A stretch of 64,000 bases of DNA from Octopus vulgaris (lineage: Eukaryota): contig OX597842.1 of the NCBI GenBank assembly GCA_951406725.2, forward strand, positions 8,060,001 through 8,124,000, in the 5' to 3' direction. Shown here in pieces: positions 7,325-37,751 of the stretch; positions within the stretch are counted from its first letter, which is position 1; every line of letters begins with the position of its first letter. The notes under the pieces are model-generated. The model was given only the letters and a program-made list of their open reading frames with translations, had not been told where the DNA came from and did no database searches. Made by a program: the position numbers and the translations under genes.

Positions 7325-7500
7325 CATATACACACACACACATATTCTTTCAGTTTCCGTCTACCAAATCCACTCACAAGGCTTTGGTTGGCCCTGGGCC
7401 ATAGCAGAAGACACTTGCCCAAGATGCCACGCAGTGGGACTGAACCCGGAACCATGTGGTTGCTAGACAAGCTACTTACCACACAGCCATTCCTGCGCCT
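7104..7500 (-). mobile_element. SINE family A, full length
   Basis: Reverse complement of the 3551-3951 element. Confidence 0.9.
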
Positions 7501-7899
7501 ATAAATTATTCAACATCTAAATTTAATTTAAAATCCAAGATGCAATTTGAAGGAGATTCAGCTACTATTTCTAGCAGGTTGATCAACCAAGTGGGTTGCT
7601 GTTGTTTAGCCCCAGGTCAGGCCTCACAGAGCAGATCTCTGATCAAAGCTTCATGTTCCATACATGATCAATAGGACCCACATTACTGAATGCACTTGAT
7701 TTTTAAGAAAGTGAGGTGTGGTTTATGAGATTTGGCTGTTATCTCTAGAATGAAGAGGTACTTCTGTGAGGCGATGGGGTTAAAAACGATAGAGATGGTG
7801 GTGGGAGTGGCAGACGATAACGAAGCAACTTAGAGGCAATCAGGAAGCAGTAAGCAATTTGTGTTGTCATTACAGAGGTAACGTGGTGGTGGTAATTGG

Positions 7900-31890: not shown

Positions 31891-32675
31891 AAAAAAAATT
31901 CGCTACAAACTGCAATATAAGAGGAATCTGCACCACCTGATGCATATTTATAGAAAACTTCATTAAAAAATATCCATTTACTAGATATTCAAGGCAAAGG
32001 CGCAGGAGTGGCTGTGTGGTAAGTAGCTTGCATACCAACCACATGGTTCCGGGTTCAATCCCACTGCGTGGCACCATGGGCAAGTGTCTTCTGCTATAGC
32101 CTCGGGTCGACCAAAGCCTTGTGAGTGGATTTGGTAGACGAAAACTGAAAGAAGCCTGTCGTATATAAGTGTGTGTGTGTGTATATATATATATATGTGT
32201 GTGTGTGTGTATGTATGTGTGTGCATGCGTTTGTCCCTCCAACATCGCTTGACAACTGATGCTGGTATGTTTATGTCCTTGTAACTTAGTGGTTCGGCAA
32301 AAGAGACCGATAGAATAAGTACTGGGCTTACAAAAGAATAAGTCCTGGGGTCGATTTGCTCGACAAAAGGCGATGCTCCAGCATGGCCGCAATCGAATGA
32401 CTGCAACAAGTAAAAGAGGAAGTTAACGGAGGTAGCCCATCATGTATGCATGTACATGTGTGTGAAGGCACCTGGCTTAGCGGCTCGGCTTTTTAGCTCC
32501 CGATAATAAGGTCGGGAGTTTGTTACTGGACAGCATGTAGTGTCCTTGAGCAAGACACTTTATTTCATGCTGCACCATTCCACTCAGCTGACAAAAATGA
32601 GTGGTACCTGTAATTCAAAGGGCCAGCCTTGTGCCATTCGGTGTCACACTGAATCTCCCTGAGAACTACATTTAA

Positions 32676-32895
32676 CCCTTTAGTGTTTAAACCAGCCATA
32701 TCCAGCCAAAATATTCTACCTATTTTATGTTCAAACTAGTCAGATATGGTCATTCATAGCTACCTTATTGTGTCATTTTAAAAATAAACAATCACATCAT
32801 TGAAATCTCAAAGCCATCAAATGATGCAAGATTAATTTTACATGGTGTGAATACATAAGCTTTACATTTGACAGAATAATCTGAATGCTAAAGGG
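32676..32895. mobile_element. piggyBac-like MITE (second family)
   Basis: TTAA at 32672 and 32896; ccctttag/ctaaaggg TIRs; homologous to 36289-36509. Confidence 0.85.
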
Positions 32896-33519
32896 TTAAA
32901 GTTATGTGTATCTGTAGACAGCCCAGCCACTTACACACTAAAATCACAAGCTGACTGTTCTGTTGAACAAATCAACTGGAACATTCATCGAATTGATGGA
33001 ATGCCAGTACTATCATCCGCATCATTTAACATCTGCTTCCATGCTGGCATCGACCGGATGGTTTGGCAGGAACTGGCCAGGTGGAAGACTGCACCAGACA
33101 TCTGTGTTTGTTTGGACACCAAACACTACGCAGAGTGAACGTAGTGCTTTTTTCATGACACCTGTACAGGTGGGGGTCAGTTTCGGTATGGTTTTTACAG
33201 CTGGATGCCCTTCCAAGTGCTAACCACTTTACAATGTGGACTGGGAGCTTTTTACATGGCACCAGCACAAACGCGATCAGTTTTGGAAAGGTTTTTACAG
33301 CTGGATGCCCTTCCAAATGCTAACCACTTTACAGTGTGGACTGGGAGCTTTTTACATGGCACCAGCACTAGCAGGGTCACCGAGTAACCTGCAAGATAAA
33401 AATACTTTAAAAGGGAGAGGGGTATTGTAGGAGGTGACCTTGTTTCAGATAATGAAAGGTGACAGAGAAACAGAGTGTCTTGCTGTAAAGGAGGTACATT
33501 CTTTTGACATTATATATAT

Positions 33520-33551
<32 letters not shown>

Positions 33552-34035
33552 CTATATAAATCTAAGTGTACGGTATATATACATATATATATGCTGTAAC
33601 TGCGAAGACCCGACAAATAACATGAGTTCATGGCTGTTTCCTGCACCAGTTTCGTATAGCAGCTCCGGCCCATCCAAAGTACTTTGGATTGCATAACGAC
33701 CTGCTGTGCTTACCTTGGATCATAGGGTCACCTGCTGTGCTTGAGGAGACCTATTGAGTCAAGTACATCAACATCAAAATAAATAACAAATGGAAATTTT
33801 AGTTGTGTTACCTGTGCCAAGTAAAATGCACCAACCGATCATGGCTGCTGCCAGCCTCCCCTGTCACCTGTGCCAGTGGCATGTAAAAAGCACCCAGGGC
33901 ATCCAGCTGTAGAAACACTGCCAGATCAGACTGGAGACTGGTGCAGCCTCCTGGCTTCCCAGACCCCAGTCGAACTGTCCAACCCGTGCTAGTATGGAAA
34001 ACGGACATTACACAATGATGATGATTATATATATA

Positions 34036-34268
34036 AGGCGGCGAGCTGGCAGAAACGTTAGCATGCCGGGCGAAATGCGTAGCCGTATTTCGTCTGTCGT
34101 TACGTTCCGAGTTCAAATTCCGCCGAGGTCGACTTTGCCTTTCATCCTTTCGGGGTCGATAAATAAAGTACCAGTGACGCACTGGGGTCGATGTAATCGA
34201 CTTAATCCCTTTGTCTGTCTTTGTTTGTCTCCTCTATGTTTAGCCCCTTGTGGGCAATAAAGAAATAA
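34036..34268 (+). mobile_element. SINE family B, monomer
   Basis: ggcggcgagctggcagaaacgttagc...gagttcaaattcc...gcctttcatcctttcggggtcgataaa...aaagaaata. Confidence 0.9.
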
Positions 34269-34374
34269 TATATATAAGAAAATGGATGTAACAACAAGGG
34301 GAAACTCATCGTTTTCGCTGGTATGCCTTTAATTTAATTAGGTAACAAAGATGAACGAAGCAATGGTGAAGGTA

Positions 34375-34425
34375 GCATTTACAATTATTTCGATTTACTG
34401 GTTTTAGTAAATCTCTTCAGAATGC
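34375..34425 (-). ncRNA. Minimal type I hammerhead ribozyme, intact core
   Basis: gcatt CTGAAGA gatttact-aaaacc-agtaaatc GAAA taattg TA aatgc: 5-bp stem I, 8-bp stem II, self-complementary stem III, GUA triplet. Confidence 0.8.
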
Positions 34426-34514
34426 GAAAATTAGATTGATGCAGTGGATGGGATGCAAAAATATTTTCACATCCCAACCGATGTATCAATCTAGTTTTCG
34501 CATTCTGAAGAGAT

Positions 34515-36166
34515 AACAGAGGAATTCAAGACTGGATGCCCCTGGGAGCTCCTCTATGCTGACGACCTTGCTCTAATTGCTGAGTCACTATCAGAACTGG
34601 AGGAGAAGTTTCAGGTGTGGAAGCAAGGATTAGAATCGAAGGGCCTTAGAGTCAACCTAGCTAAAACAAAAGTTCTAATAAGTAGGAAGGCAGGCAAACC
34701 ACAAATCCCTTCAGGTAGATGGCCCTGCTTGATCTGTAGAAAAGGCGTAGGTAGAAACTCTACAAGATGTACCCAGTGTAAGCTATGGACATGTAAGAGG
34801 TGCAGCAATATCAAAGGAAGGCTAACTGAGAAGATAGTTTTTGTATGTGGCAGATGCTCAGGGGCTATAAACACTGAAAATGCACAGAGAACTACTTCCA
34901 CCACATTCCAGGGAGAAAAACTAGAAGTAGTTGATAGCTTCCATTACCGAGGTGACCAAGTCAGTAGCGGGGGCAGGTGTGCTGAAAGTGTAACTGCTAG
35001 AGTAAGAATAGCCTGGGCAAAGTTCAGGGAGCTCTTACCTCTGCTAGGGACAAAAGGCCTCTCGCTCAGAGTAAAAGGTAGACTGTATGACGCATGTGTA
35101 CAAACAGCCATGCTACATGGCAGTGAAACATGGGCCATGACTGCTGAGGACATGCGTAAGCTCACAAGAAATGAAGCCAGTATGCTCCAATGGATGTGTA
35201 ATGTCAGTGTACATACTCGACAGAGTGTAAGTACCTTGAGAGAAAAGTTGGACCTAAGAAGCATCAGTTGTGGTGTGCAAGAGAGACGTTTGCGCTGGTA
35301 TGGTCATGTGGCAAGAATGGATGAAGATAGGCGTGTGAAAAAGTGCCAATCCCTAGCGGTTGAGGGAACCCGTGGAAGAGGTAGACCCAGGAAAACCTGG
35401 AACGAGGTGGTGAAGCACGACCTTCGAACATTAGGCCTCACCGAGTCAATGACTAGTGACCGAGACCTTTAGAAATATGCTGTGCCTGAGAAGACCCAGC
35501 AGGACAAGTGAGTCCATCCCATGTCCCTTGCCAGGGATGTAGCCAGCCCACTTATGCATGCCTTTCCTTCTTTGGACACACGAAGACCTGTTGAGGCAAG
35601 TGAAGTTGAAATTGAATTCAAAATCAGACCTCATCCGATGACTAGCACCCATGCCAACCTCCCTTCATTGGACACTAAACTCTGCTTGTGAAGACCTGTT
35701 GGGGCAAGTGAAATCGGAATCAAAATTGAACCAATCCTATGACTGACTCCTGTGCAGGTGGCAAGTAAAGAAACACCATTTCGACCCTGTGCTTGAGGAG
35801 AGTACATGTACACGATCAAAAATCAATGGAAATTGTAGTTGTAATCCCTGTGCCGGTGGCACGTAAAAAGCACCATCTGAACGTGGCCGATGCCAGCGTT
35901 GCCTTGACTGGCTTCTGTGCCGGTGGCATGTAAAAAGCACCAATCCGATCGTGGCCGTCGCCAGCCTCGCCTGGCACCTGTGCAGGTGGCACGTAAAAAG
36001 CACCCACTACATTCACGGAGGTGTTGGCGTTAGGAAGGTTCATCCAGCTGTAGAAACACTGCCAGATCAGACTGGAGTCTGGTGCAGCCTTCTGGCTTCC
36101 CAGATCCCAGTCAAACCATCCATGGAGAACGGACGTTAAACGATGATGATGATGATGATGATGATG
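34515..36166 (+). mobile_element. 5'-truncated RTE-clade LINE (RT C-half, 3' UTR, (GAT)n tail)
   Basis: LLYADDL at ~34550; ORF to 35472 with MLHGSETW, RRLRWYGHVARM, RGRGRPRKTW; tail gatgatgat 36142-36166. Confidence 0.95.
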
Positions 36167-36288
36167 AGTAAATTGAAACGATCGTAAATGCTACCTTCCT
36201 GTTATTTAATTAAATTGAAGGCATACCAGCAAAAACGACAAGTTTCCCCTTGTTATTTACATCCATTTTCTTCTCCTATATAACTTAA

Positions 36289-36509
36289 CCCTTTAGCATT
36301 TAAACCGGCCATATCCGGCCAAAAGTATTCTGCTTGTTTTATGTTCAAACTGGCCAGATCTGGTCTCTCACACCAACCCTACAATATCGTTTTAAAAATT
36401 AACAGCTACCTCATCAAGAACTCATAGCTACAAGATAATGCCTGATTAGTTCAAGGCAATGTGGATGAAAAAGGATTAATTTTGGCAGAATAATGTGACC
36501 ACTAAAGGG
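36289..36509. mobile_element. piggyBac-like MITE (second family)
   Basis: TTAA at 36285 and 36510; ccctttag/ctaaaggg TIRs. Confidence 0.85.
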
Positions 36510-37751
36510 TTAAACTACAGTTTACCAACCGAACCACCTGCTACCAGGAAGGATGAAAAGTAAAGTCGACCTCAGCAGAATTTGAACTCAGATTGATCGT
36601 TTCTACAACAGGCACAAGGCCTGAAATTTGAGGGAGGGAGGACAGTCAATTACATCAACCCCAGTGTTTCACAGGTACTTAATTTATCAACCCTGAAAAG
36701 ATGAAAGGTAAAGTCAACCTCGGTGGAATTTGAACTCTGAACGTAGCAATGGGTGAAATATTGCTAAGAATTTCATCCGGTGTGCTAACGATTCTGCCAA
36801 GTTGCCACCTTAAATAATAATGGTTTCAAATTTTGACACAAGGTCAGCAATTTTCAGGGGAAGGTCTAAGTCGAGTACATTGACCCCAGAGCTCAACTGG
36901 TACTCGTATTATTGAGCACAAAAGAATGAAAAGCAAAGGTGACCATGGCGGGATTTGAACTCAAAACAAAGACAAAATGCCATGAAGCACTTTCCCCAGC
37001 ATGCTGATGCTTCTGTTAACTCACCAGACTTAGACCAGTAGTTCATATAAGATTTGGGGGCAAGCGAAATACTATATTGGGGATCCTAAAAGGTAGGATG
37101 GTCACAGCTGGAACATCTTAGATCATAGATCTGCTGGATCAGAGCTGACCTGGGGCTAACAACAAAAACACCTATAGCCATTAATACTCACTACTATGCT
37201 AACATTAGATAATGTATTCCTAGATACACTATGTCTGAATAAAAGATGGGATGGTCACAGTTGGAACAGCTGGGGTTAAACAACAATAATTATAGCCACT
37301 AATACTAATTACTATGCTGTACATTAGATAATGTAGTCCTAGATACACCATGTCTGAATAAAAGATGGGATAGTCACAGCTGGAACATCTTAGATCATAC
37401 ATCTACTGGATCAGAGCTGACCTGGGGCTAACAACAAAAACATCTATAGCCATTAATACTCACTACTATGCTATACATTAGATAATGTAGTCCTAGATAC
37501 ACTGTGTCTGAATTAAAGATGGGATGGTTACAGCTGGAATATCTTTGATCATATGTCTGATGGATCAAAACTGGCCTAGGGCTAAACAACAACTGGAAAC
37601 ACTAACTACTATACATTAGTTAATGTAATCCTAGATACACTATGTCTGGAATAAAAGACAAAATGGTCACAGCAGGAACATCTTTGATCACACATGTGGG
37701 ATCAGGACCTGCTTGGGGCTAAAGAAGAATTATAGTCACAATTAATAATCA

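Follow-up and report, generated by a model that had tools for sequence, protein, structure and literature searches.

Head-to-head 3′ ends of a Hydra-clade Penelope-like element in Octopus vulgaris and their likely origin by two priming events on one RNA

A palindrome bearing hammerhead ribozymes, found in a 64,000-nt stretch of Octopus vulgaris contig OX597842.1 (the window), consists of a pair of 3′ ends from a Hydra-clade Penelope-like element (PLE) lying head to head, which is a known insertion form. It likely arose by priming from both strands of a nicked (TA)n target on one RNA, at two start sites, after which the far ends of the resulting cDNAs were joined. The family concerned (family 1) is a new Hydra-clade family, its form is known in kind and the locus is an ordinary dead insertion; it is the family-level mechanism, not this locus, that carries the interest. 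On balance, and guardedly, we favor a wider proposal: that the inverted repeats of PLEs arise from two priming events on a single RNA, at two start sites, that the family-1 insertion record is genomic evidence of hammerhead cutting in vivo, that cleavage diverts roughly a third of events to short palindromes devoid of an ORF, and that ribozyme strength differs between families. The formation of tandem and inverted PLE structures and the role of the hammerhead are called open in passages of PMC8557442, and the family data presented here bear on both.

Architecture of the palindrome and its ribozymes

The two inverted arms are centred at 34462/34463, where the earlier note had placed them, and match at 87% over the inner 52 nt. 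At the head-to-head junction (34462..34463), a 2-nt self-complementary overlap, both arms begin at the same family position, about −190. The left arm (34276..34462, minus strand; ~190 nt) aligns with the family as a PLE 3′ end that stops at site A, next to the (AT)n target visible in the window at 34268..34275. The right arm, on the plus strand, is interrupted twice. Its first segment (34463..34514), an inverted match to the left arm, is followed by a later insertion, a 5′-truncated LINE with a (GAT)n tail (34515..36166, plus strand), which we take to be of RTE type. This insertion produced no target duplication, 11 nt of target are gone, and the insert has an RVT_1 match at an E value of 3.7e-6, under the curated cut-off. 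The 3′ part of the arm resumes at 36167..36288 (plus strand) and includes site A, at 36277, and the start of the tail. There it is broken by a second later insert of 221 nt (36289..36509), which has CCC...GGG ends and TTAA on both sides and is presumably piggyBac-like, after which the family alignment follows the tail through 36510..36545 (plus strand), to about +44, the remaining tail lying outside the window. The TATA that had been described at both outer ends is therefore internal on the right, where family sequence continues to 36288 and then over 36511-36545, and the structure is asymmetric because the right arm runs beyond TATA into the tail. Relative to the family-1 majority, the arms of the locus diverge by 5-8%; the left arm also scored 88% to the majority.

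Several other repeats surround the locus. A further copy of the 221-nt TTAA element lies at 32672-32900, and read depth in public runs indicates a high copy number for this element. A SINE-like high-copy repeat, unrelated to the arms, flanks the palindrome in opposite orientation (34030-34269 and 36544-36967), and several RTE-type 3′ end fragments occur nearby in both orientations (33000-34030 and 35470-36166).

An independent 115-nt contig from another public run covers 34402-34516 with zero differences; because it crosses 34462/34463 unchanged, an assembly artefact at the centre is disfavored. Such an artefact, or a host inverted duplication, is a highly improbable source of the palindrome: one family locus, L137, is indeed a host duplication, but here the mirror ends at the element ends and excludes the flank, the arms differ in 3′ extent and the independent contig bridges the centre. 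Among the joints listed from four DNA runs, a minority of the total because repeats dominate the output, none represents an insert-free allele of this locus.

The left arm holds the complete type I hammerhead that had been claimed (34375..34425; minus strand, 34425-34375), with all core bases present, an 8-bp stem II and a GUA cut predicted between 34380 and 34379. It is the sole match to the structural descriptor in the window, and 0 of 100 first-order random windows match. Specificity comes only from this descriptor, as the loose core pattern, with 10 matches in the window, is not above chance (6 of 100 shuffles reach 10). An Rfam search gave no match at the gathering threshold. The right hammerhead is present in halves at 34500-34514 and 36167-36191, as described, but removal of the RTE-type insert does not restore it: relative to the family, it has lost 11 nt from stem II/loop II at the position of that insert.

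The earlier note had also proposed that each hammerhead is masked by its antisense. This is physically plausible, with −61.7 kcal/mol for the inner 52-bp hairpin versus −4.9 kcal/mol for the ribozyme fold, and folding models predict that a read-through transcript would sequester the 5′ half of the left ribozyme in this hairpin; the masking nevertheless appears to be a side effect of insertion. Stem III of the left copy is decayed, its self-duplex being −2.6 kcal/mol versus −10.0 kcal/mol in an intact copy. With diverged arms, a decayed left stem III and a hairpin that masks the left ribozyme, no ribozyme activity is expected at the locus today, and no present function is indicated.

A family that leads into a PLE reading frame

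The 2.8-Gb genome contains at least 374 candidate matches to the family-1 arm, of which 40 were scored, and the hammerhead pattern in family 1 has 108 matches. Copies extend 5′ into an 800-nt 3′ UTR and then into a broken ORF with RWK, DKT, LYRDD, SNH[P/L], CxCx5C, VVY..YIG (GIY-YIG-type) and CDLC..E motifs. The window copy lacks an ORF. Sister copies contain a single ORF with RT and C-terminal GIY-YIG, interrupted by stops and frameshifts, and in a tblastn search with P0002, residues 3-699 were covered across L244, L243 and L032. The suspected link of the arms to PLEs and to an RT/GIY-YIG ORF is thus borne out, by way of the longer family copies. The RWK motif lies near the N terminus (LRWKAL in L243, LLWKAL in L244), DKG is changed to DKT (SDKTRN in L244 and L050) and in L031 and L032 the CxCx5C linker reads CSCRDRTKC, with CDLCLSE and FCLH as the CxxC and CxH around the conserved E and N; CCHH was absent when the broken frames were inspected by eye. 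A Pfam search of the broken PLE pieces gave no significant match, and the 12 relatives found for these pieces are not informatively named. Nevertheless, the motifs match the published description, and with reference proteins compared by eye, they point to a Hydra-clade placement. L032 carries a long Asn/Thr-rich in-frame stretch between the RT thumb and the endonuclease (7330-7780), and L031 contains an unrelated 780-nt palindrome (1844-2623) that is 90% self-complementary.

Family-1 elements insert at (TA)n sites, and microsatellite-like sequence, by a loose test, adjoins 110/130 A ends and 68/80 B ends across the family. A canonical hammerhead is present near the 3′ end. Insertions show partial tandems, 5′ truncation, an inverted 5′ copy and a one-ended tail; in the partial tandems L036 and L243, the tail, beyond TATA, runs into the 5′ UTR and ATG. 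The loop II ends (−134 and −129) are A...T in about half of the copies and T...C in the rest, a difference that divides two subfamilies and lengthens stem II by one pair; the left copy in the window has A...C. Among the sequencing runs listed as holders, none is RNA. Two of four runs that we guess to be RNA yielded a few family-1 contigs, in which neither ends nor strand are readable.

The earlier note had taken the palindrome for a separate, noncoding foldback family with a recurrent centre. This is unsupported, as the centre occurs a single time in the genome, at this locus, with one mismatch allowed. In none of the 39 other scored copies does the arm run on into the centre seen here; in most, the element's own upstream sequence follows instead. 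Given this unique junction, the note's alternative of a one-off pLTR inversion applies to the locus, and the inverted pLTR junction that it had named is the relevant form, two PLE 3′ ends head to head. The double-arm architecture does recur with other centres, in family 1 and often in a second family described below. In 55 related, non-independent arms, non-CpG differences fall at 23/605 core versus 836/10083 flank positions.

Paired 3′ ends and the edge of 5′ ends in two families

Relative to site A (0), the family-1 ribozyme spans −154 to −104, with its cut at −108, and site B lies at +141. Sites A and B, 141 nt apart, are two fixed 3′ ends. The 181 unique loci include 57 head-to-head pairs, of which 50 combine A with B; the remainder comprise 2 pairs of A with part of the tail, 4 with an internal end, no B+B pair and 1 A+A pair, at L137, where the mirror takes in host flank. 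Positions 2330-2660 of L137 are a host inverted duplication that mirrors the element end plus flank. When loci found only with the tail query are set aside, A+B accounts for 43/44 fully typed pairs, against a 43% expectation based on the 70 A and 32 B ends of single copies (long insertions with a partner outside the fetched flank were counted as single). The A+B status of the window locus itself is only partly seen, as the B end is absent. In 39/41 testable pairs, this locus included, the partner arm is closer than the median other arm, and at this locus it is closer than any other arm, a similarity to which gene conversion or equal age could contribute. The 5′ ends of the two arms fall within 1 nt of each other in 6/52 pairs, where chance predicts 0.85, and no more than 15 nt apart in 18/52, where it predicts 8.2; both arms pass or fail to pass the cut together (p 0.004 in 43 pairs, 0.04 in 35 pairs). 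The A+B pairing, the shared variants and the coinciding 5′ ends fit dual priming on one RNA.

With the same PLE origin, the inverted arms could instead come from self-priming or fold-back, whether on an antisense RNA or the first cDNA; PMC3846280 proposes this, in the portion available, for palindromic inverted junctions of rotifer Penelopes. Fold-back would likewise give shared variants and near-symmetric centres. However, it requires nested arms, whereas the longer arm is A in 26 pairs and B in 19, and 7/52 pairs have no overlap; the centres at L227 and L070 are blunt and loop-free; and an antisense template would not yield an edge at the sense-strand cut. This origin is unlikely.

Such an edge emerges from family-1 5′ ends sampled with a pattern at −28 to −1, which is blind to 5′ extent. 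Of its 125 matches, the 100 listed represent 122 arms at 87 loci, to which the following counts refer. Among the matches listed, 46/99 arms at risk have their end within 30 nt on the 3′ side of −110, compared with 4/53 within 30 nt on its 5′ side (p 5e-7); counted by locus, the values are 28/75 and 4/47 (p 3e-4). Seven-nucleotide bins across the edge hold 1, 1, 1, 1 and then 12, 14 and 10 ends. Four of the listed arms start exactly at −108, the base 3′ of the scissile bond, five more start within 2 nt and none starts at −111 to −113; the best-fitting change point in a 30-nt scan is at −118 to −110, not exactly −108. The short copies fall in several subfamily haplotypes and diverge by 4.3%, versus 4.1% for long ones. 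The pile-up at the scissile bond suggests ribozyme cleavage in vivo, the simplest reading being a template 5′ end generated by the ribozyme, plus trimming in the joining step, and the excess of cut-site ends suggests that roughly a third of events are of this kind. There is no support for a second edge near −190 of the kind that a transcription start would leave (best p 0.04 over ~120 positions in 120 arms). The scissile-bond edge makes it possible to ask, from sequence alone, which PLE ribozymes are cutting in vivo.

A protein search identified a second, young Hydra family (family 2; L249-L348, for example L250, L262 and L270), about 36-42% identical to family 1 in RT blocks. Its near-identical copies, many with open 727-aa frames, suggest that it is possibly still active. 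It has a 70-nt tail and 3517 exact 3′-end matches genome-wide, and its open frames and abundance in the same genome make it a candidate for assay. We examined 61 records on one contig, covering ~90 of 100 listed matches, with ends taken from gapped mapping. Among the matches listed, A+B is found in 31/31 records with exactly two opposed arms. The family-2 cut (−37) shows no 5′-end edge (2/94 versus 2/92 among the matches listed); a sharp edge lies instead 48 nt farther upstream, at about −85 (52/89 versus 2/37 among the matches listed). This edge adjoins the upstream side of the ribozyme at CCATTC, which we take to be an initiator-like (Inr) motif, and it is probably a transcription start. An edge just upstream of the ribozyme accounts for the small double-hammerhead palindromes of family 2: 14/61 records, among the matches listed, have two divergent hammerhead cores within 60 nt, and palindromes of ~230 bp are frequent; their centres vary, CTAG being a hot spot. 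The family-2 data support dual priming and run-off at the RNA 5′ end. Because the sharp family-2 edge lies away from its cut, an edge alone cannot prove cleavage, and the family-1 case rests on the coincidence of edge and scissile bond and on the stronger stem II (−5.6 kcal/mol versus −0.4 kcal/mol in family 2).

It is accordingly conceivable, though we give it the smaller weight, that dual priming is right but that the −108 edge marks a transcription start or RT stalling at the folded ribozyme. The equally sharp family-2 edge at CCATTC, away from the cut, favors this, as does the Penelope promoter, which sits in the pseudo-LTR according to the part of PMC2377424 available. Yet stalling at stem II, the strongest helix, predicts an edge near −121 and stalling at stem I one near −103; a transcription start would fall inside the ribozyme only by coincidence; the exact and near-exact starts at −108 among the matches listed, with none at −111 to −113, speak for the scissile bond; and the stem II difference fits cutting by family 1 only.

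In the dual-priming mechanism that we prefer, both nicked strands of the (TA)n target would prime reverse transcription on one sense RNA, each strand using one start site, A or B, and the far ends of the two cDNAs would then be joined. For many sister insertions, hammerhead cutting may have preceded reverse transcription, such that the cDNAs ran off at the cut. The window copy would derive from an uncut template, hence the ribozyme kept in both arms; the later RTE-type and TTAA insertions then broke the right arm.

Spacer-less palindromes do recur: both arms span the ribozyme region in 6/52 family-1 pairs (one ribozyme is partly deleted in three of the six), and several of the 14 family-2 records noted above share the CTAG centre. 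An independent noncoding ribozyme element, MITE-like or retrozyme-like and moving as a unit, is nonetheless very improbable, as the centre of our locus is unique and others vary by locus, either arm may bear the tail, the short copies fall in several subfamily haplotypes, and the head-to-tail joins seen are solely partial tandems with ORF. A MITE or foldback DNA element was rejected on the lack of a recurrent fixed structure and on the asymmetric A and B ends, and a non-LTR retrozyme on the lack of a head-to-tail hammerhead array at the locus or in family loci.

Comparison with known systems

In L1 twin priming, a 5′ inversion results when one RNA is primed by two target 3′ ends. The mechanism proposed here differs in the fixed site of its second primer and in the usual overlap of the cDNAs, which produces inverted repeats. 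In the search made, which covered few subscription papers, no paper was found that states dual priming or cut-site truncation in PLEs.

Family 1 shares with the Hydra-clade EN+ PLEs, as described in passages of Craig et al. 2021 (PMC8557442), the RWK, DKT and CxCx5C motifs, the C-terminal GIY-YIG, the (TA)n targets and the 3′ type I hammerhead. It differs from them in its 141-nt tail (30-40 in Hydra-clade PLEs), its 8-nt perfect palindrome in stem III, its 8-9 bp stem II and the Asn-rich stretch between RT and EN. The hammerhead listed for Hydra-1_Obim differs from that of family 1 in stems I-III when compared by eye, and the listing for Penelope-13_HM there gives an inverted copy at the 5′ end, with hammerheads on both strands. 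Hammerhead pairs on opposite strands, 100-700 bp apart, also appear in the accessible text of PMC4209133.

The Penelopes of Adineta and Drosophila (PMC3846280, in part) show the same head-to-head arms, junction palindrome, one-arm tail and Asn-rich ORF inserts. That paper invokes antisense self-priming, whereas the geometry of the family-1 arms favors two priming events on sense RNA. In vitro, the protein of the Anolis Poseidon PLE (PAc) nicks and extends both strands, as the available portion of PMC11167929 reports, and like family 1, PAc has two internal RT start sites that bracket the tail and AT-rich targets. Hammerhead cleavage is dispensable for PAc in vitro, and no RNA-seq ends lie at the cut (PMC11167929, same portion). 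Inverted insertions receive no treatment in that portion of PMC11167929; the A+B rule, seen in two families, yields a direct prediction for this existing in vitro system. Finally, non-LTR retrozymes are likewise short, noncoding and PLE-related, with type I hammerheads, according to excerpts of PMC7229834 and bioRxiv 10.64898/2026.07.22.740005, but they form head-to-tail tandem arrays, whereas the octopus locus is a single head-to-head pair.
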